From positions 512,001 through 576,000 of the forward strand of contig CAWGMQ010000011.1 in NCBI GenBank assembly GCA_963823665.1: a DNA stretch of 64,000 nt, in the 5' to 3' direction. The translations under genes were made by a program, and so were the position numbers. Positions 44,729 to 59,326 of the stretch are shown piece after piece. Each line of letters starts with the position of its first letter. The first letter of the stretch is position 1. This DNA comes from an uncultured Planctomycetota bacterium. Its GTDB lineage: Bacteria > Planctomycetota > Planctomycetia > Isosphaerales > Isosphaeraceae. The notes beneath the pieces were generated by a model that worked only from the letters and a program-made list of their open reading frames with translations, ran no database searches and had not been told where the DNA came from.

Positions 44729-45306
44729 TTGCGTCAGGAAAGCTCGAGAAAGGAGGAAGTGCCTCGAAACACAGAAACCTTTCATCGCGACCCTGCGGGT
44801 TAACGAATCCCGCCCGGCAGAGCCTGGCCGGCAGCCGGAAGCAAGTCTTGCGTGGGGAGGGGTGACCCTCACTGCGAAGCGTAGACAGCGAGTCTCCATG
44901 CCATGCTATCGAGCCCCGAAATACTCATCGTGGGAGCCTCCGTTGTAGACACAAGCGGGGGCCGTGTCGACACGCCGCAATGGCCTGGCGTGTTCGGTCC
45001 TGCCGGGGTCCAAGAACATGGCGCAGGGACGCGAGGGTTGCTCGGGAACCTGAGAGCCCCATCCGTCTCCACTGACATTTCCGGCTCGGGAACCGGAATA
45101 CCAACTCCCCGGCCCACGACCCCGCGTCGGGTCGCTGGGAGCGAACAGGACGCAAGGGTGGTATCGCCACACGAAGGCAACGAAGTGCGGCGAAAGGGGC
45201 GGATGGGAGTCGGAGCGTCTCGTAGTACCGTTGAAGCCGGGGAACCACTCCGAGGGACCCGGTGGAGGGAAGGAGACGCCATGTCACACAACCGTTGGAG
45301 GGAAAC

Positions 45307-46658
45307 ATGGCGGGTGCATCGGAACCCGTGGACGTGTCCACGAAACAACAACGGATAGCGGAACTCGCTCGGCGAAGCCCGGAGATGGGATTCACATCCC
45401 TGGGGCACTTCATCGACCTCGATTGGCTGCTCACAGCTTACTACCGGACCCGCCAAGACGGGGCGGTGGGCGTAGACGGACAAGATGGCGAGGCCTACGC
45501 AGCGAACCTGGTCCCGAACCTACGGTCGCTGCTGGAACGAGCCAAGTCCGGTACGTACCACGCACCGCCTGTGCGGCGAGTGCATATCCCCAAGGCAGGC
45601 TCAGCGACCGAAACCCGGCCACTGGGAATCCCGACCTTCGAGGATAAAGTGCTCCAGCGTGCTGTCGTGATGGTTCTGGAGGCGATATACGAGCAGGACT
45701 TCAAGAACTGCTCGCATGGCTTCCGGCCCGAGCGATCGGCACACACTGCGTCAGAGAGCCTGTGGCAACAGACGATGAACATGAAGGGCGGATGGGTAGT
45801 GGATGTGGACATTCGTAAGTTCTTTGACACGATTGACCACGGCCATCTACGCGACTTCCTCAAGCGTCGGGTGCGAGACGGAGTGCTGCTCCGGCTCATC
45901 GGCAAATGGCTCAATGCGGGCGTCTTCGAGAACGGGTGCGTTACGCACCCCGAAATGGGGTCGCCACAAGGGGGTGTGATCAGCCCGATCCTTTCGAATA
46001 TCTTCCTGCACTACGTGCTGGACGAGTGGTTCGAGCGGGAGGTTCAGCCTCGGATGATGGGCAGATCGTTCTTGATCCGCTATGCGGACGACTTCGTCAT
46101 GGTCTTCTCATGCGAGTCCGACGCACGGCGTGTGATGAATGTGTTGCCCAAACGCTTTGAGAAGTACGGCTTGACCATCCACCCGGACAAGACGCGGCTG
46201 GTGCCGTTCGAGCGGCCATCGGACCGTCCCAAACCGGAAGGCAGACCCACACGAACTCCACCAGGGACTTTCGACCTGCTGGCGTTCACCCATTACTGGG
46301 GTCGCTCCCGGCAGGGTCGCTGGGTGGTGAAGCGCAAGACGTCCAAAAGTCGATTTCGCCGCAGCCTGCGAACGTTGGCGGATTGGTGTCGCAAAATCGC
46401 CATCAACCGCTCAAGGTGCAGCACCGGATACTAGGTCAGAAACTGCTAGGCCACTATGCCTACTACGGAATCACCGGCAACTCCAAAATGTTGTCACGGT
46501 TTCGCAGTGGTGCCACCTGGCTCTGGCAGCACTGGCTGTCGCGCCGCGGGCGCGGCCGTCGGATGACATGGGAACGGTTCGCTCGGTTCCTGAAGCATAA
46601 ACCGCTTCCGGCAGCGATTGCGATCCACTCAGTATGCCGTCTCGTAGCGAACAAGTGA
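45307..46658 (+). CDS. ltrA: group II intron reverse transcriptase/maturase without an endonuclease domain; frameshift at the A4 run 46393-46396
   Basis: GVDG, RPLGIPTFEDK, GFRP, DIRKFFD, GSPQGGVISP, YADD. The maturase X motif GHYAYYG is in ORF 46383..46658. GGAGG lies upstream. Confidence 0.92.
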
Positions 46659-46705: not shown

Positions 46706-49125
46706 TCGCGAAACGAAGCTGCGGATGAGTCTGTTATGACTGGATTTGCAACCAGGACATAACCCGATGTACGACCACCGGAACCCTACCAGGACGTGCG
46801 GCCGGAGCAATCCGACCGTGCGAAGCTCTTGGGACAACGTAACCTCACCTTCGGGTGGTTGGATATCCCGTGAGGGAATCCGGCGACTGCGAACGCCAAT
46901 GCGGTCGGGGGCCAGGGGTGGATGGCATGGCTAATCCAGGTGAACTGCCGATAAACGTCGTGAGATCCAACAAGCCAAAGGCGCTGAGAGGCTTGAACCA
47001 AAAAGGTACGTGGCCAGGTACAGTGGGATTTCCCATCCCCTGTCGTCGTCATCCGAGCCACCGGCGGAGAGGCAGAGCCTAAACCATCCGTGATTCATCC
47101 GTGGAACGTGGTAAGCCCGTCGCCCTCCCTTCGGGGTAGGACCGTCGTAAGGCGTCGCCGATGGGGCGGCGGGTGGAGGATGAGGGAGCAAGCCAATGCC
47201 GTTCGGTAGTCGATCGGATAGAGGGTGAGTCCTCCCACGGACGACATCCCCTCACCGCGAAAGCGGTGCCGACTTCCCTCAGGTGTTCCGTCACGAGAGA
47301 ACCTTGGCCAACCGACTCAGGGAGACAAGCAGATATGTCGGCGGCAGAAATGCTTGCTGGTGCGGCTCCCGAGCTTACGCCCGACTGGCACTCCATCGAA
47401 TGGAAGAAAGTCTGGCGCACAGTCCGTCGGCTCCAGGCGCGTATCGTGAAGGCTGTTGCGGAGGGCAGATGGAATAAGGTCAAGGCTCTGGTTTATCTGC
47501 TCACGCACTCGTTCAGTGGCCGGGCCCTGGCCATTTTGCGAGTCATCAGTAATTCGGGTGCGAAGACTCCCGGTGTGGACGGAGTTCTCTGGAACACACC
47601 GGAAGCCAAGTCGGCTGCTTTCAGCACTCTGCGTCGGCACGGTTACCAACCGCAACCGCTCCGCCGGGTGTACATTCCCAAAAGCAACGGCAAGCGACGT
47701 CCTCTCGGAATTCCCACCATGTCAGATCGAGCCATGCAGGCATTATACTTGCTAGGCCTCGATCCCATTGCGGAATCTCGAGCCGACGGCCATTCCTATG
47801 GCTTTCGGCTGGAACGTCGTTGTGCCGACGCCCTGGAACAATCTCATATTGTCTTGGGTAATCGGAGCGGTCCAGCATGGATTCTCGAAGGGGACATCAA
47901 AGCTTGCTTTGATCGCATCAGTCATGACTGGCTCTTGACGCACGTCCCCATGGACCGGCAGTTGCTCGGGCAATGGCTGAAAGTGGGTTTCCTGGAGAAG
48001 CACGCCTGGTTCGCCACCACGGAAGGAACACCTCAAGGCGGGATCATTTCACCCGTCCTGGCGAATTGGACTCTGGATGGACTGCAACGGCTGTTGGCGG
48101 AACAGTTCGCCGAGAAGCACGGGCGACAACGGAAGTTTAAAGTCCACCTGGTCCGCTATGCGGATGACTTCTTGATCACGGGCATCTCAAAGGAACTCCT
48201 CCGTGACCAAGTGCAACCTCTCGTGGCTCATTTCTTGAAGGAACGCGGCTTGGAACTTTCCCACGAGAAAACCCAGATCACGCATGTGGAGGATGGCTTC
48301 GATTTCTTGGGGCAGAATGTGCGACGCTATCGCTGCGGCAAGGTGTTCACCAAGCCGTCCTTGCGAAACGTGAAGACGTTCTTGAACAAGATACAGGAAA
48401 CGATCGACGGCTCGGGCAGCCTAACGGCAGGAGAGATGATCTGGCGTTTGAATCAGCAGATCAAGGGCTGGACCATGTACCACCGTTACGCGGCGAGCAA
48501 GCGCACTTTTACGTACGTGGATCACCGGATTTTCCAGAAATTGTGGCGTTGGTGTCGACGACGGCACCAGAACAAAGGCCGGAGGTGGATCAAGGAGAAA
48601 TACTTCCAGCAAGACGGTTACCGCCACTGGGTCTTCACCGGTACGCTGTTTGACCAGAAAGGCCAAGGCCGGCCGATCCAGTTGATGGAAGCAGCCAAAG
48701 TGAAGATCATTCGTTATGTGAAGATCCGGAGCGACGTGAATCCCTACGATCCGAAGTGGGAACTGTACCTGGAAGCACGACTGGGTTGGCAACTGAGCCA
48801 AACGCTGGCAGGTCGGGGTCGGATCGAATACTTATGGAAGGAACAAGAGGGACGATGCGTGGTCTGTGGTCAACCGCTGCGGATCGCAGAGGAAGACTTG
48901 CATCTCCACCATCGCATCTGGCGCAGCCGGGGCGGTTCTGGCACAGCCGACAACCTGGAGTTGTTGCATGCCAACTGTCATCGGCAGATCCATGTCCAAG
49001 AACGACTGACGAAAGCGGCCGCGTCCTGCGAGGGGCGTTCGTGAAGGCTTGAGCTGCATGAAGGGAAACTTTCACGTGCAGTTCTGAGGGGAGGGGGTGG
49101 CGGTAACGTCACCTCCTTACCCGGC
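46706..49125 (+). mobile_element. second group II intron (chloroplast-like class by recall), nested in DVI of the outer intron
   Basis: Starts TCGCG. DV GAGCTGCATGAAGGGAAACTTTCACGTGCAGTTC at 49051-49084; ends TTACCCGGC. Removing it restores the outer GGGAG/CCTTGGGGG DVI. Confidence 0.9.
47335..49044 (+). CDS. ltrA: group II intron RT/maturase with a C-terminal HNH endonuclease
   Basis: WHSIEW...[42 protein letters not shown]...HH...[10 protein letters not shown]. Confidence 0.95.
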
Positions 49126-51468: not shown

Positions 51469-51733
51469 GGTTGAACTCCTGGTGGGGGGACGGAAACGAG
51501 ATGCACCCAGTATCGAAATCGATCCGCCTTTTCGGGATCAGTCACTCTTATGCCCAGAACAGCCAGAGTAGCACCCCGCGGGCTGGTTTACCACGTCCAG
51601 GACCGCATTTCCCGTCGCGTTCAAGGATGAGCACCCGAGCACCCGAGCCGGGGACTGAGAAGCCCGTTGGCCGCGTCATTGCCGCCTTACCCGAAGGACC
51701 GCTGAAGCAAGTCTTGAGAAGGATGGCGGTCGC

Positions 51734-51897
51734 AGGGATTCCAGGGGATTCCAGACACCCATCCTTTTGTCACGGCCCTCCGCATCCACTCATTCGCGGC
51801 TCGCACGTTCGGCGCAAAACCACGGCCTCTGGTCATTTCCAACACGCATAAGGCTAGTACCCGACGCTCGGCAAACGGTGGGTTTCTGACATCCCCC
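51734..51897 (+). repeat. REP-like element copy without an intron
   Basis: Full core ending GGTGGGTTTCTGACATCCCCC (G-to-T change in IBS1). Confidence 0.9.
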
Positions 51898-51898
51898 T

Positions 51899-52576
51899 GC
51901 GAACGACGACGGCACCAGCAGCGGAACCCGATTGTGGCTTCGTCCGGTCGGCTGGATGGCGGCCGGCGCGCTGGTCGGCCTGGCCGATGGGCTCTTCGCG
52001 CTGTCACCAAACCGGATGCGCAACGGCTTGATCGGCGGACTGGCCGGCGGCCTGATCGGAGGCATCCTCTTTGATCCGATCAAGGCGCTGGTGGCGCGGA
52101 CCGCCGGCGCGGGCGATCCGGCCCTCCCGTTCGAGATCACCAGCCGCGCGGCCGGGTTCGTCGCAGTCGGCCTCCGCATCGGCGCGGCGGTAGGGCTGAC
52201 GCACCTTTTGCTCAAGCACGCCCGGCTGACCGTCCTCGACGGCGACCGGCCCGGCCGGCAAGTGATCCTCACCGGCAGCGGCGCGACTCTGGGAAGCGAC
52301 CTGGGCGCCGGCCTCCCGTTCCTGCGCGACGCCGACCCGACCCTGCTGCCCACCCATCTGCGCATCGAGCGCAGCCGCGATGGCTCCTTCTCGCTCCTGG
52401 CCGCATCTCCGGCCGCCGATGCCGATGTCACCGTCGTGAAGCAAGGCATCCGCCAGATGCGTTCGCTATTAGACCAAAGTGCGAAAGGCATCAGTCTCGA
52501 ATCTGACGGCCAATCGAGCGAAGAGGATCACTTCGCGCGGGCAGTGCCCACAACCTGGTCTGACGTGACCGACTAG
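51899..52576 (+). pseudogene. 5'-truncated membrane protein with an FHA-like domain
   Basis: The frame opens right after the TGA inside the repeat end. Gly-rich TM helices precede LTVLDGDRPGRQVIL...LGSD...HLRIE. Confidence 0.6.
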
Positions 52577-53646
52577 GTCCCGGATGCGCACTCGAGTGCA
52601 AGCGTGATGAACTTGGGAAGCATTGCAATCAACTCGCGAGCGAACACGTCGAACTCGATCGGTTCGTTCCGGCCGACGATCGGTAGGAAACGCGCTCTCT
52701 CGGCGGCTTCGACGTCTGAGACCAGTGAGCGACGTGCCCGGAGAGTTGTCGATCCATCGAGAGTCGTCAATCGGATTGTGCTTCGGTGCTCAAGCACCGG
52801 CTTTCTCAGGAACGTGCCGACACGCAGCTTGACGGCCAGCGCGATGTCCGCGTGAGTCTCCTCGAGGATTTTCCGCTGGGCAGCCTCTCGACTGCGAGTG
52901 GTTCCCTGCAAGACACCCAGCCCGGGTGCCGCGAAAGTCCGGGTGTGCAACACACGCCCGATGTCACTTCCGATTGGGTTAAGCACCATGAGTGGTGACG
53001 ACTTGACGAAAGGCTTCTTGCGCAATTCCCTGTACGCGGGACTCGCGAGCAAGTCGGAGTCGCGGACAGGCTCCAGCCTTCGATTGCGGAGGTCCTTCAC
53101 GAAGGCCGCATAGAGCTCGGACGCCAAAGCTTCCTGCTGCTCCTCGGGCATCTGCGTGTTCTTGCGCCCCACCCCGATCACCTGAAGGGCCCCGCTGGGG
53201 ATCATCACGAGGGGCGCAACGGGCATCACCACGAAGGCCGCGACAGGGTACACAACGGAGGTTAAAGACAGCGCCGTGTTCGGCATGAGCTTGAACATCG
53301 GCTGCCGCTCCAGCGCCGGCTGGAACTGGAGGTCCACCAGCTCGACCTCAAACTCCGTGACGACCACCCGCCTGCCCTTTGCGAGGGCTGCCCCCGGCTC
53401 GAGCGGTCCCTCGCGTTTCCAGTAGCCGGCCGGGACCACAGACTCGTCAGCACGTGCGGGAACCGCGTTGACCGATGCTGCTTTTGGCGGCGGATCCGCC
53501 AGTACTTCCGAAGCTCGTCGCGGCGGGCTAAAGCACCCGGGCACGAGAGACAGAACGAGCAGGGCACCGACGCGCGCCGAAAGGCCCCGAGCTCGTTCGC
53601 GACGGCATGACGGGTTTATCACTGGCACCCTTCCGGATCGATTCAT
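52573..53646 (-). CDS. hypothetical lipoprotein
   Basis: LLVLSLVPGC lipobox; 357-aa ORF. Confidence 0.65.
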   Translation of the reverse strand: MNRSGRVPVINPSCRRERARGLSARVGALLVLSLVPGCFSPPRRASEVLADPPPKAASVNAVPARADESVVPAGYWKREGPLEPGAALAKGRRVVVTEFEVELVDLQFQPALERQPMFKLMPNTALSLTSVVYPVAAFVVMPVAPLVMIPSGALQVIGVGRKNTQMPEEQQEALASELYAAFVKDLRNRRLEPVRDSDLLASPAYRELRKKPFVKSSPLMVLNPIGSDIGRVLHTRTFAAPGLGVLQGTTRSREAAQRKILEETHADIALAVKLRVGTFLRKPVLEHRSTIRLTTLDGSTTLRARRSLVSDVEAAERARFLPIVGRNEPIEFDVFARELIAMLPKFITLALECASGT

Positions 53647-54185
53647 CCCTGATTCTCCGGATCAAACCCACGCTCTATAGACAAGGAACAGTACGGCCCA
53701 GTTTGCGACGGCGCCCGCGAAGAGTACCCGATCTCATCAAAAACGCATATTCGTCTTGTTGACATTGTCAATTTTTAACCGCCCATGCATGGTGCTCGGC
53801 ACTCGAGCTCACCTCACCTAGCTAGATCTTGCTCGCGCGCTAGACCTGACGCCCGCTCACCGAATGAAACTCGTCGCAATCGAATGCGCTTTCTGGACCG
53901 CGATCCCTTGGGTGTAGTACACTTAATTCGCCGCGCTCAACCGTCACGTGACTGCTCTTGCGGTTACCCCGAGATCCAACGTTCTCTGTTCCACGGGATC
54001 GCGACTATGGCAGTGGTCGGACGGCGAACCGTTGCTCGCGTCGTTGAACAGTGTTCTCGTGGCTCTTCGACGCCATGATCTGGATGAGAGACCGGGCGAC
54101 GAGACGTTACCTGCCCGTCAGAGGGCGAGGGATTTGGCCGTTGGTCGTCGCTTGATGAGAATCTTTCCACTCGGGAGGGCCGCTG

Positions 54186-55364
54186 TTGGCCATGGCCAGG
54201 AAGTCGAGCCAAGAGCGAGTGCAGGCGACGCAAGACGGGCGATCCGAGCGAGCCGATTCCTTCGATATTGGCGACACGGTCGAGGTGCAATTTCGAGTCG
54301 TCGAGGGAGGGAACGAGCGGATCGAGATCTTCAATGGCGTCGTCGTCCAGCGGTCGGGGCATGGGTTGCACGAGATGTTCACGGTTCGCCGCATTGTTCA
54401 GGGCGAAGGTGTCGAGCGCCGGTTCAAATTGCATTCGCCATGGATCGCCGACGTCGCTGTGAAAAGGTCGGGCAAGGTGCGGCGCACCAGGCTCTATTAC
54501 CTCCGTGACAGGTCGGGGAAGGCCGTTCGGCTCAAGGAGCGCTTCTCCTACACAACCGGCGCTGACGCCAAAGCCGCCAAAGCCGAGCGCAGAGCCGCCC
54601 GAGCCGCCCGGAAAGCCAGCAAGGTAGAGGCCGAAGTAGCACCGTCAAGTAAAACGAAGCAGCCCAAGGAGGCGTCCCATCGAACGGCCAGTGCGAGCGA
54701 TGCCGGGCCGGCAGAGTCCGAAGGGACGGTCGCGGGATCGTCGATTGACGCCGTATTCGTCCCCGGTAAGTCGCCATACCGGCTAAAGCAGTCTATCGCG
54801 CTCACCGTGGTCGAAACCCGGTCAGGAGTGACCATCCGAAGCGCTGATCTGGGCCTCGAGCGCGACTTAGTCGGTCGTGGACCAGATTGGAACTCCGCGA
54901 TGAATGACTTCGGGCGCAGGTTCGACTTACTGGTCGAGAATAATTGGGCTCTACCGCCTCATAGCATGACACTCAAGAACCGTCGTATTGCCAGCATCCT
55001 CGACAGCGTCGTGGATTGGAAGCGCCACGACGACGAGAATCCTTTGGTGCAGCCCATGTGGGGCCGGCTCCAAGGGCGCCTTGCAGATGGGGCTTTGACC
55101 ATCCATTGGCTAATCGGTCCGAATGGGGATCGCGATGCCGAAGGCGGCCTGCACACGCGAGATGTTCCCGAGGCGCTCGCCGAGCTCGACACGGGCCAGT
55201 GGTTCTACGGCACGGCCAAGTGCTATCCGGATCACATTGAGTGGATCGAGCAGCCCAGCGTTGTTCCGGACCCGAGCGACTCTGAGGGCAGGCGTGCGGT
55301 CTGGGACAGCATGCGGAAGGTCCAGGCCAATCAGCCAGGCTGCTGGCCCGTGAAGCCGCGCTGA
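54186..55364 (+). CDS. ribosomal protein L19 domain fused to an unknown C-terminal region of about 200 aa
   Basis: FDIGDTVEV...EGGNERIEIFNGVV...FTVRRIVQGEGVERRF.LHSP...GKVRRTRLYYLRDRSGKAVRLKE matches bL19; the ORF stays open to 392 aa. Confidence 0.85.
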   Translation: MAMARKSSQERVQATQDGRSERADSFDIGDTVEVQFRVVEGGNERIEIFNGVVVQRSGHGLHEMFTVRRIVQGEGVERRFKLHSPWIADVAVKRSGKVRRTRLYYLRDRSGKAVRLKERFSYTTGADAKAAKAERRAARAARKASKVEAEVAPSSKTKQPKEASHRTASASDAGPAESEGTVAGSSIDAVFVPGKSPYRLKQSIALTVVETRSGVTIRSADLGLERDLVGRGPDWNSAMNDFGRRFDLLVENNWALPPHSMTLKNRRIASILDSVVDWKRHDDENPLVQPMWGRLQGRLADGALTIHWLIGPNGDRDAEGGLHTRDVPEALAELDTGQWFYGTAKCYPDHIEWIEQPSVVPDPSDSEGRRAVWDSMRKVQANQPGCWPVKPR

Positions 55365-55391
55365 TTCGGAGCGGGGAGCGGACGAGTAACC

Positions 55392-56435
55392 ATGGCGATC
55401 AGTTTGTATTGTCTGGATGTCGGCCAGGGCCAATGCATAGTGTTGATGGCCCAATCGGCCGAGGGAAACCAGGCCGCCTTGATCGATGTCGGCGTGGACG
55501 GGAAGCGGTTGGCCCGATGGCTGAAACGCATCAAAGTCCGGCGCATTCCGCTGGTTGTGTTGACGCACAATCATAGCGACCACATCAAGGGACTCGCTGC
55601 TCTGGTCGAGGAATTCGCATCGAAAGTCGGCGATATCCGATTCGTCATCGATCAGCCTCCAGAGCAACTTCCTTTCTGGTCGCCAATCCAGGCATGGCGT
55701 GCCGCCGGTAAGATCGGGTCGGCCAGCGTCGTCTATCCGCCGGACACGTTTGAGGCCGGGACGGGTCACCCCCTTCTCAGCCGCGACCTAGGGGGATTCC
55801 AGCTCTACTGCACCTATCCGACCATCTTCGAGGCCGAGGCAGTTGTCCGCGAAGCCCCGCTGCTGGGTACTCAGCCCGGCGGCAGCGTGAATGCCGTGAG
55901 CACGGTAGTGCGACTGGCCAGAACTGCTGAACCACACCGGACGATTGCCCTTTTTGGCGGCGATCTCACCTTTCGAGGATGGCAGCGCCTTGACGAGAAA
56001 GGTTACGACCTGTCCACCAACCTGCTTGTCGTCCCGCACCATGGCTCGAGTTTCGGTGCCAGCCGGGCGTTTGGGCCCCGACACCTAGCACGCCTCTCTG
56101 AGCCCAAATATGCCCTGTTCTCCGTCGGCACCGAGAATTCGTTTGGGCACCCCCGCAGGGATGTCGTTCGCGCTTTTTGCGAAGTGCGGGCGACGGTGCT
56201 CTGCACTCAAATCACGCATCAGTGCGTGCGCAGGCCCAAGCAACTCCCCGGTCAAACTGTGCGGACAGCCACGCCGGGGGAGCCTGACCTGGTTTCGATC
56301 GGAGTGCGCTGCGCAGGCACAATCATGATCGAAATCCCCGACGTGGGTTCGCCAAGAGTGGTTGGTCTTCGGGAACATCGGAGAGCGGTCGACCGCCTGC
56401 CTCGAACCGCGGACTGCCCGATGTGTCGCCCTTGA
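55392..56435 (+). CDS. ComEC/Rec2-type metallo-beta-lactamase-fold hydrolase
   Basis: LDVGQGQC, LIDVG, THNHSDH, FGGD, VPHHGS, NSFGHP. Confidence 0.88.
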   Translation: MAISLYCLDVGQGQCIVLMAQSAEGNQAALIDVGVDGKRLARWLKRIKVRRIPLVVLTHNHSDHIKGLAALVEEFASKVGDIRFVIDQPPEQLPFWSPIQAWRAAGKIGSASVVYPPDTFEAGTGHPLLSRDLGGFQLYCTYPTIFEAEAVVREAPLLGTQPGGSVNAVSTVVRLARTAEPHRTIALFGGDLTFRGWQRLDEKGYDLSTNLLVVPHHGSSFGASRAFGPRHLARLSEPKYALFSVGTENSFGHPRRDVVRAFCEVRATVLCTQITHQCVRRPKQLPGQTVRTATPGEPDLVSIGVRCAGTIMIEIPDVGSPRVVGLREHRRAVDRLPRTADCPMCRP

Positions 56436-56473
56436 GTTCCCCCAGATTGGTGACTCGCAATCCGCGTCCGTCG

Positions 56474-56737
56474 GGACAACCGTCCGAGGAGGAGGAGCCA
56501 GGGGGAGCCAGACACCCAATCTCTGGACAACCGTCCGAGGAGCCGAGGAGCCAGAGGAGCCAGACACCCAATCTCTGGTTCCGAGGAGAAGCCAGGGAAT
56601 CCAGGCACCCATCCTTTTCTCACGGTCTTCCATATCCATTCATTCGCAGCTCGCACGTTCGGCGCAAAACCACGGCCTCTGGTCACTTCGAACACCCATA
56701 ACGCGAGTGTCCGACGCTCCGCAAGAGGTGGGTGTCT
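56474..56737 (+). repeat. REP-like element copy with a stuttered left end and no complete intron
   Basis: Duplicated GGACAACCGTCCGAGGAG and GAGCCAGACACCCAATCTCTGG units, then the core, ending GGTGGGTGTCT followed by GTGCG. Confidence 0.9.
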
Positions 56738-56833
56738 GTGCGTCGTTGGCTCGGTGTCACCGCGTTTGCGCCTGAATCTCTCGCCTGAATCGGCTCCTGA
56801 GCCCTGTGTCAAACAATTCCGGCCCCGGCAAAC

Positions 56834-58613: not shown

Positions 58614-59112
58614 CGTGCTCTCCTGGGGTGTTGAACTTTTGTGATGAACAACCTCTCTTACGCCCTGCACGAGTGCCTCGAATCCCTCGCGTCCCCATGG
58701 CGCAGGGGTCCACACATCCGGCGCCTGCCGGTCATCCCAGCGAATGGCGCCGGCTGCGAGCGCGGTGCCGCTGTCGATGGATCGGGGCGTTCGCGCAGGG
58801 ATCGGGCTCAAAGGCCCTGACCGGGTGAAAACGCTCGACCAAACCCGAAAACTCAGGGAAGCGCCTGCCGCGTGTCCGGCGCGGCGATGAATAGAGACCT
58901 TCGCGATTTCGAATTAACGGACAGGGTTTCCGGGAAAATTCCAGATTTTCCCCGTCGGTCGTTTCGAGCAGGGTGCCGGGGCCGCACCCGGCGTGCAACT
59001 CCTGGCGCTACCGACGCGGTACCGTGCGATCCCCTTACTCATACTCCTGCTCCTGCTCTCACTTCCGCTTTCTCCATCAATCATCCAACCCGGTTCGCAC
59101 AGACGAAGTGCC

Positions 59113-59326
59113 AGGAGGAGCCAGACGCCCAATCTCTGGTTCCCAGGAGGAGCCGGGGAATCCAGACACCCATCGTTTTATCAGGGAATCCAGACACCCA
59201 TCGTTTTATCACGGTCCCCCCCATCCATTCACTCGCGGCTCGCAAGTTCGGTGCAAAACCACGGCCGCCGGTCATTTCGAACACGCAGAAGGCGAGTGCC
59301 CGACGCTCGGCAAAAGGTGGGTGTCT
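59113..59326 (+). repeat. REP-like element copy (5' exon of intron D)
   Basis: Duplicated GGGAATCCAGACACCCATCGTTTTATCA, then the core and GGTGGGTGTCT. Confidence 0.9.

Follow-up and report, generated by a model that had tools for sequence, protein, structure and literature searches.

Effectors of the metallo-beta-lactamase (MBL) fold with regulatory partners are already known, as are host domains inserted in conflict proteins, and it is rare for bacteria to duplicate and domesticate a core ribosomal protein. The defence system Lamassu is defined by an SMC-like LmuB ATPase beside an LmuA effector. Here, we analysed a stretch of 64,000 nucleotides (the window) from an uncultured Planctomycetota bacterium of the Isosphaeraceae (assembly GCA_963823665.1, contig CAWGMQ010000011.1, positions 512,001 to 576,000 of the forward strand). 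Within it, one open reading frame (ORF) joins a copy of ribosomal protein bL19 (L19) to a C-terminal domain, which we call the adaptor, and is followed by the gene for a soluble ComEC-type MBL-fold hydrolase. The best explanation of this ORF is that its product is the adaptor subunit in a mobile conflict module not described before, comprising a TIGR04255 gene, an adaptor with a HicB-like half and an OB fold, and a ComEC-type MBL.

The module resembles several described systems in part. Toxin-antitoxin-chaperone (TAC) modules, in the accessible text of PMC5105189, likewise consist of three genes, of which one is a constant addition, the middle one encodes a protein extended by a disordered stretch, and the last encodes an enzyme; here, in contrast, no SecB is listed among the structural matches of TIGR04255, the extension is N-terminal, and the source locus lacks TIGR04255. 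Relatives of the module lie between DUF499-DUF7680 and DUF1156 genes, as would fit the BREX-related DUF499/Hma systems covered in the main text of PMC12839542, whereas no DUF499 ATPase, DUF1156 methylase or helicase was recognised among the ORFs flanking the source locus. Finally, the L12/ClpS insertions in MoxR-vWA systems, according to the sections of PMC7159879 available to us, also place a ribosomal-protein-type domain within a component of a conflict system. Those insertions are of a multimerising, protein-binding domain and occur in several Bacteroidetes, whereas the domain identified here is a near-complete rRNA-binding protein, of host-family origin, and was seen once.

The fusion is encoded in a single frame of 392 codons with no internal stops in the assembly, as a previous reading of the sequence only had claimed. 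Residues 19 to 119 match bL19 above the family cut-offs, both for PF01245 (E 2.8e-38; 130.7 bits against 22) and for TIGR01024 (125.4 bits against 90.7). The adaptor begins at residue 185 and is 208 residues long. From residue 120 to residue 207 the frame lacks ATG, GTG and TTG codons, offering only an ATT (187) and an ATC (204), and the adaptor therefore depends on an upstream start. This start is a TTG at 54186, preceded by a GGAGG-type motif approximately 7 nucleotides upstream, with an alternative ATG at 54192 that yields a protein of 390 residues (P0003), whose numbering we use for changes in L19. The first six residues from this ATG resemble an internal start of the L19-free homolog P0004, a weak similarity (p=0.035) that was the best of 22 comparisons, and homology between the linker and the N-terminus of P0004 was not significant. 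The Ala/Lys/Ser-rich linker of the sequence-only reading was retained in part, as approximately 25 of its residues are instead the natural C-terminal tail of L19 in the host's family.

The fused copy resembles canonical bL19 in retaining 35 of 39 broadly conserved columns, and in its family-specific tail. It differs from canonical copies in the replacement of the N-terminal ~21 residues, in its 245-residue extension, its long branch and low codon adaptation, and in its position outside the rpsP-(rimM)-trmD-rplS operon: as previously noted, neither rimM nor trmD lies nearby. A search for the canonical gene, proposed at the same time, recovered two L19 matches in the source genome, the fusion and a normal rplS of 146 residues, which lies on contig C3 after rpsP and trmD and has the expected operon context.

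We found no recurrence of the fusion. An L19 match was present in 115 of 121 genomes of the family, and a second, separate L19 locus only in the source genome (0 of the 114 others with an L19); seven other genomes with several matches contained adjacent pieces of one frameshifted gene. Searches with Pfam and a dedicated L19 profile identified no L19 in 48 adaptor homologs or at 21 other loci of the module, and no adaptor was found in 119 long L19 proteins. An adaptor-domain search among proteins of 215 to 686 residues gave two matches and no second L19 fusion, scans of viral sequences gave no matches to either the adaptor or the fused L19, nor did a scan of genome contigs with the single adaptor domain. 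The MBL scan of genome contigs recovered, among the matches listed, only distant MBLs, none near an adaptor or L19, and the Atlas gave no usable adaptor match, with the TIGR04255 third gene matching only TIGR04255-type clusters. Two other long L19 proteins were observed as singletons, both devoid of an adaptor: P0162, with an N-terminal addition of ~125 residues and a degenerate C-terminal motif, and P0189, which continues ~500 residues past L19. These may be errors or further captures.

By sequence comparison, the fused L19 derives from the host's own family. Its core (96 residues) aligns to the host rplS with no indels, at 73% amino acid and 70% nucleotide identity and with a proportion of synonymous differences (pS) of 0.66, indicating that it is not a recent duplicate of that gene. 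The best matches to the core and tail among 401 genomes of the class were three rplS sequences from genus g58, at 78% identity, with none higher. Across 27 positions of the tail, 22 are identical to two g58 tails, compared to 18 in the host's own. The fused L19 resolved in a clade with the host and g58 (approximate likelihood ratio test, SH-aLRT, 96.3; ultrafast bootstrap, UFBoot, 81), within which its sister placement was weak (71.6 and 45). A g58 genome, G091, bears the closest genome-borne TIGR04255-free module (69.7% DNA identity over 1333 nucleotides), and capture in a g58-like host followed by transfer may be proposed as a plausible, if weak, scenario.

The substitutions in the fused L19 point to constraint. 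Relative to the three g58 rplS genes, it has 23-24 non-synonymous and 36-37 synonymous codon differences. Of 54 sites that are invariant in the family, it differs at 11; among 60 canonical copies, 55 show no private change at such sites and none shows more than four. These 11 changes are conservative by BLOSUM (p=0.0007), and eight of them introduce residues also seen in distant L19s, where neutral simulation predicts 3.0 (p=0.0007). A codon model of 28 of the 66 sequences placed the ratio of non-synonymous to synonymous rates (omega) on the fused branch at ~0.03, with an upper bound of ~0.07-0.08 and a background of 0.021, under a saturated synonymous divergence (dS). Omega of 1 on this branch was worse by 31 log-likelihood units and was rejected, and relaxation relative to the background was not established. 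These rates indicate that the fused L19 has been kept under purifying selection, in keeping with the earlier proposal of a co-opted ribosomal protein. Its codon adaptation (0.48, against a family median of 0.72) is as low in only one of 60 canonical genes, suggesting long residence outside the ribosomal operon.

The losses and retentions within the domain are uneven. The N-terminal segment is missing, leaving PF01245 profile positions 1-10 unmatched, and the substitutions include Q45E, I52V, A99T, K100R and P79K. All Lys and Arg residues between positions 91 and 119 are retained or changed from K to R, and both the basic C-terminal segment and the tail remain. Because the N-terminal segment and several near-universal residues have been lost, it is unlikely that the fused copy replaces the real L19.

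The adaptor domain is an undescribed family, predicted to consist of a HicB-like half and an OB fold. A length-free search identified 48 proteins at E<=0.001, including one false match to a repeat protein (P0045). Adaptor homologs share a core of ~210 residues, in which Pro, Trp and Gly residues are invariant, and their N-termini, ranging in length from 0 to ~210 residues, do not align. Pfam, NCBIfam and PADLOC models gave no match to the domain, and Foldseek found nothing at E<=0.001 in PDB or BFVD. The core was modelled by AlphaFold2 with high confidence (predicted local distance difference test, pLDDT, 93.4). In this model, residues 12-99 align with TTHA0281 (PDB 2dsy; Z 5.2, root-mean-square deviation (rmsd) 3.5, 66 residues aligned), which we take to belong to the HicB/UPF0150-type family, and with Rv1738 (Z 4.8). 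The earlier guess of a HicB-type fold was thus weakly borne out by structure, and we treat it as a lead: the Z values are modest and within the range of common arrangements, and the domain differs from HicB antitoxins in the OB fold that follows and in having an MBL, not HicA, as its partner. The OB fold (residues 102-187; best Z 6.8, rmsd 3.6, 78 aligned) is supported by many consistent structural matches.

The N-terminus of the adaptor is a slot, disordered in most members, that holds other domains in a few. These include a patatin fragment (L054/P0018), a PG_binding_1 domain (P0035) and a region of ~600 residues (L140), from which we conclude that the slot accepts foreign sequence. In L140 (3402-8447), an adaptor-like C-terminus ends an ORF of ~830 residues that is preceded by a gene for a STAND NTPase and followed by an MBL, with no TIGR04255. 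In L050 (56-1159), the adaptor carries an extra N-terminal domain of ~70 residues with no Pfam or PADLOC match.

The MBL gene begins 27 nucleotides past the fusion stop, as first described, and its product is a probable nuclease, judged by its ComEC-type fold. Its metal motifs (H59-x-H61-x-D63-H64, D191, H216-H217 and H253) are mostly invariant or nearly so in 27 homologs, and a conserved Cys motif lies near the C-terminus. Unlike the ComEC/Rec2 competence protein, it contains only the MBL domain in its 347 residues, without the membrane Competence domain, and it scores 40.3 bits against a cut-off of 190.05 for ComEC TIGR00361. Its fold and ComEC-like motifs are shared with known effectors (LmuA, PDC-M48B and RTasMBL in PADLOC; 6A-MBL and Avs1a in NCBIfam). 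Matches to these profiles and to ComEC are partial, and below the cut-off where one exists: the best defence match, to LmuA (E 1.9e-12), covers 82 of 345 positions, and that to 6A-MBL NF058524 reaches 27.5 of 220 bits. The locus additionally differs from these systems in that their other genes were not recognised adjacent to the MBL, including LmuB of Lamassu, which is not among the flanking genes, and in that the partner of the MBL has no Pfam, NCBIfam or PADLOC match.

A predicted complex supports binding of the adaptor to the MBL. The complex prediction, one of the checks suggested beforehand, scored 0.75 for the MBL with the adaptor core, against 0.00 for the best control; the mark applied to this score is reached by 116 of 157 solved complexes and two of 215 mismatched pairs, counts that are roughly valid with the alignments used here. 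Runs agreed in at least 57% of contacts, with a partner pLDDT of at least 79. Confident contacts involve adaptor core residues 70-77 and 98-108, and MBL residues 38-48, 66-76 and 294-324, and the model is uncertain outside these residues. The predicted interface contains the most conserved residues of the adaptor, in its PPH and NP..QP.WG motifs, and does not include the metal ligands, which points more to a subunit that regulates or targets the enzyme than to one that plugs its active site.

We investigated the distribution of the module across 21 loci other than the source, 16 found by the adaptor and five through the MBL; two further weak matches (L046 and L064) were unconfirmed and are not counted, and two near-identical pairs (L047/L049 and L048/L051) reduce the number of independent loci below 21. 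The same MBL lies directly downstream of the adaptor in 12 of the 16 loci found by the adaptor, and the remaining four end before that position. In total, the gene adjoining the adaptor is an MBL, and not HicA, at the source locus and 17 others. A TIGR04255 gene lies directly upstream in 15 of the 21 loci, is absent from three (L058, L140 and L142) and cut off in three, and it is absent at the source locus. Thus, of the arrangement foreseen by the sequence-only reading, the linkage of the adaptor to the MBL recurs and no second L19 fusion was found; the two-gene module stands for the source locus and fails as the norm, given the third gene upstream elsewhere.

The module is sporadic in its distribution, being found in five of 121 family genomes with a single-domain query (one weak match unconfirmed) and in four of 401 genomes of the phylum with a profile (source genome included, one match unconfirmed). 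At the source locus, a genome of the same genus (G001) matches the window at 89% identity up to 53820 and then continues into unrelated genes, indicating that the module was inserted at this site, with its left edge here. Relative to L047 the module is a mosaic, with 74% identity in the MBL, 64% in the OB half and only 34% in the HicB-like half. We additionally observed, in L143 (3711-7228), a three-gene module in which the MBL is interrupted by what appears by eye to be a transposase gene pair.

The neighbourhood of some relatives points towards defence. In L049, the module lies between DUF499-DUF7680 and a DUF1156 methylase, and the same methylase is downstream in L047 and L052. DUF499 operons are presented in PMC12839542, in its main text, as BREX-related defence systems with backup nucleases, and the terms 'MBL', 'ComEC', 'lactamase' and 'HicB' were not found in that main text. 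The position of relatives inside a DUF499 defence operon supports the defence side of the earlier proposal of an undescribed toxin-antitoxin or anti-phage system, whereas a classical antitoxin that blocks the active site is not indicated by predicted contacts lying outside the metal motifs. Neither a description of the module or of any bL19 fusion, nor TIGR04255 by name, was found in the literature searched, which excluded most subscription journals.

The TIGR04255 protein itself (model pLDDT 82) has structural matches to the kinase domain of McsB (Z 8.2, rmsd 4.0, 181 residues aligned), to AdoMetDC and to TBP-like folds. We considered whether it might be SecB-like, with L19 replacing a lost chaperone; this idea gained no structural support, as the matches listed include no SecB. 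TIGR04255 appears to be a general input gene whose effectors can be exchanged. At three loci in the source genome (L065, L066 and L067, on contigs C5 and C8), TIGR04255 is followed by a small middle ORF and then by a third gene, which encodes an HNH endonuclease in L067 and a protein of ~170-190 residues without assignment in L065 and L066. In L144 (1009-4941), a related MBL is instead preceded by a gene encoding two HATPase-type domains and by one for a receiver domain (REC), a different input to the same type of effector; the REC-containing neighbour was tried as a relative of the adaptor, and no detectable relationship was found.

How might an L19 domain serve such a module? It is possible, with a likelihood a little under even, that it is a captured RNA- or ribosome-binding domain that targets or arms the MBL, or that acts as a sensor. 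We base this on the retention of surface-basic residues and a dispensable tail alongside the loss of parts that full integration would need; neither these residues nor the tail would obviously be required for folding by itself, and their preservation by selection suggests that L19 aims or triggers the enzyme at ribosomes. In this scheme, the adaptor would bind the MBL via its conserved motifs. In the source lineage, where TIGR04255 is absent, the N-terminal slot holds an rplS that, as its sequence shows, was captured from a member of the host family. The L19 domain would bind rRNA at or near the L19 site of the 50S subunit or its precursor, or free rRNA or structured RNA, and keep the adaptor-MBL complex there. 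Mere proximity, or an altered state of the ribosome under infection or stress, might lead the MBL to cut RNA, stopping translation. A narrower version, in which the domesticated bL19 docks the complex on 50S subunits or assembly intermediates as a ribosome-integrity sensor or integrated decoy, replacing the TIGR04255 input, is more tentative and on balance doubtful.

Should the copy target the MBL to ribosomes, it would show that a defence module can acquire a fresh input through the capture of a housekeeping gene from its host, and would mark the L19 site as a point disturbed by phages or stress; the docking sensor or decoy, should it exist, would be a ribosome-directed prokaryotic analogue of immune receptors with integrated domains. 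Apart from L19, the analysis defines an unnamed module of TIGR04255, HicB-like-OB and MBL and predicts its interface, giving TIGR04255 a context that can be tested.

Several observations weigh against a ribosomal role in a defence module. The fusion is a singleton, with no recurrence to show function; we infer nuclease activity, anti-phage function and ribosome binding. The TIGR04255-free modules of L058 and L142 have no recognised N-terminal domain, so that the slot needs no filling, and G001 has at a different site (L139, 7095-8127) only a frameshifted MBL and a 22-residue remnant of the adaptor. (The G001 assembly has frameshifts in rplS too.) As silent sites are saturated, part of the purifying signal may predate capture. 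The substitutions Q45E, I52V, A99T and K100R affect residues shared by at least 90% of 57 distant L19s, with Q at position 45 in 56 of these, and the core carries a net charge of +8, below the range of +9 to +13 across 60 canonical copies; together, the lower charge and these four changes may weaken rRNA binding. Position 45 aligns with residue 41 of u334, the most often solved bL19 chain. We take its glutamine to lie at intersubunit bridge B8, and the C-terminal basic segment to contact 23S rRNA, on which our literature search found no paper. The selection on the copy argues against junk, and its singleton status limits confidence in function.

An unlikely, though not far-fetched, alternative is that L19 is a folding or stability tag, kept for its fold, that protects or solubilises the adaptor needed to restrain the MBL and has no role at the ribosome. 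Conservative substitutions with no indels fit selection on the fold, TIGR04255 as a possible stabiliser is absent here, and bL19 is described as an RNA and protein chaperone in vitro in the accessible part of PMC10931766. However, conservation extends to the surface-basic C-terminal segment and the low-complexity tail, the lack of a SecB-like match for TIGR04255 leaves no demonstrated chaperone to replace, and the TIGR04255-free modules of L058 and L142 exist without a tag.

It is rather improbable that L19 is an integrated decoy, mimicking something in the host on which an effector of a phage or rival acts (a protease, modifier or ribosome binder) so that attack releases or activates the MBL. 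Host-family origin would suit such mimicry, as would the variability of the slot, which in L140 is occupied by a long region encoded beside a STAND NTPase. Decoy effectors, and the L12/ClpS insertions, have been proposed for conflict systems (PMC7159879, in the sections available), and T4 ModB modifies bS1 (PMC10931766, likewise). A decoy should nevertheless track the current L19 of its host, to which the copy is only 73% identical, being closer to genus g58 (78%), and no phage factor aimed at bL19 was found in the literature searched.

A recent neutral passenger, that is, a piece of rplS from an unsampled, divergent member of the family that entered a tolerant N-terminus in frame and whose selection signal dates from before capture, is decidedly improbable. 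The singleton status of the fusion would fit, as would the unrelated patatin piece tolerated in L054, the inability of saturated dS to date the capture, and the weak sister placement in the tree. Against this stand the 11 changes at family-invariant sites, compared with the 0-4 private changes of canonical copies, the absence of any genome above 78% identity among the 401 of the class, and the low codon adaptation.

Finally, we considered the support for the joint in the assembly. The source genome (16.46 Mb in 12 contigs, 91.87% complete, 3.48% contamination) was compared at this locus with contigs from four independent runs of eight listed. Thirteen near-identical pieces span 53639-53792, 53842-54123 and most of 55087-56528, on both flanks; none covers the L19 part, with 54124-55086 outside their coverage, so that the L19 junctions rest on a single assembly. 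Random placement of the pieces left an equally long gap in 2.2% of trials and missed the L19 part in 5.7%, and we count this hole neither for nor against the joint. An error or chimera of the single assembly is highly improbable, even with P0003 recorded from one contig only, because it would require two frame-preserving junctions, the L19 piece is at most 78% identical to any canonical rplS found and is missing the N-terminal segment, the adaptor is without a common start codon, and the independent runs match both flanks at 99% or more with no conflicting joint or near-identical loose end.

The features of the locus are collected in the following table.

Features of the fusion locus and its immediate surroundings (window positions)
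Feature	Position	Strand	Basis
Fusion gene (392 aa): short N-terminus, bL19 copy, linker, HicB-like/OB adaptor domain	54186..55364	+	ORF
Polar N-terminal segment replacing the first ~21 residues of L19	54186..54260	+	sequence comparison
bL19 core, 96 aa	54261..54548	+	profile matches, codon analysis
Family-specific Ala/Lys/Arg tail of L19	54549..54626	+	tail alignment
Low-complexity linker, 7% hydrophobic	54627..54737	+	composition
N-terminal half of the adaptor, with a predicted HicB-like fold (beta-beta-beta-alpha) and the conserved PPH motif	54738..55034	+	predicted structure
Adaptor C-half, predicted OB fold and conserved Trp/Pro tail, NP..QP.WG motif	55035..55361	+	predicted structure
Soluble ComEC-type MBL-fold hydrolase, 347 aa	55392..56435	+	profile matches, metal motifs
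Upstream non-coding region	53821..54185	+	comparison with same-genus genome G001
Dispersed genome repeat containing short direct repeats, at the module's right edge	56471..56738	.	repeat comparison

The fusion and MBL genes are flanked by an ORF without family assignment and by a beta-helix protein, and a promoter scan returned no sites. The repeat copy reported downstream of the MBL is present, and is probably host DNA outside the system. A dispersed repeat of ~150 nucleotides, with many copies in the genus, occurs at 51733-51895, 56545-56738 and 59110-59326 of the window and separates blocks of genes. Upstream, at 52573-53646, lies a divergent ORF of 357 residues with no family match that is conserved in the same-genus genome. 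We additionally identified two reverse-transcriptase/maturase-like ORFs, of group II intron type by eye, at 45262-46658 and 47161-49044, of which the first is split and the second has many copies in related genomes.

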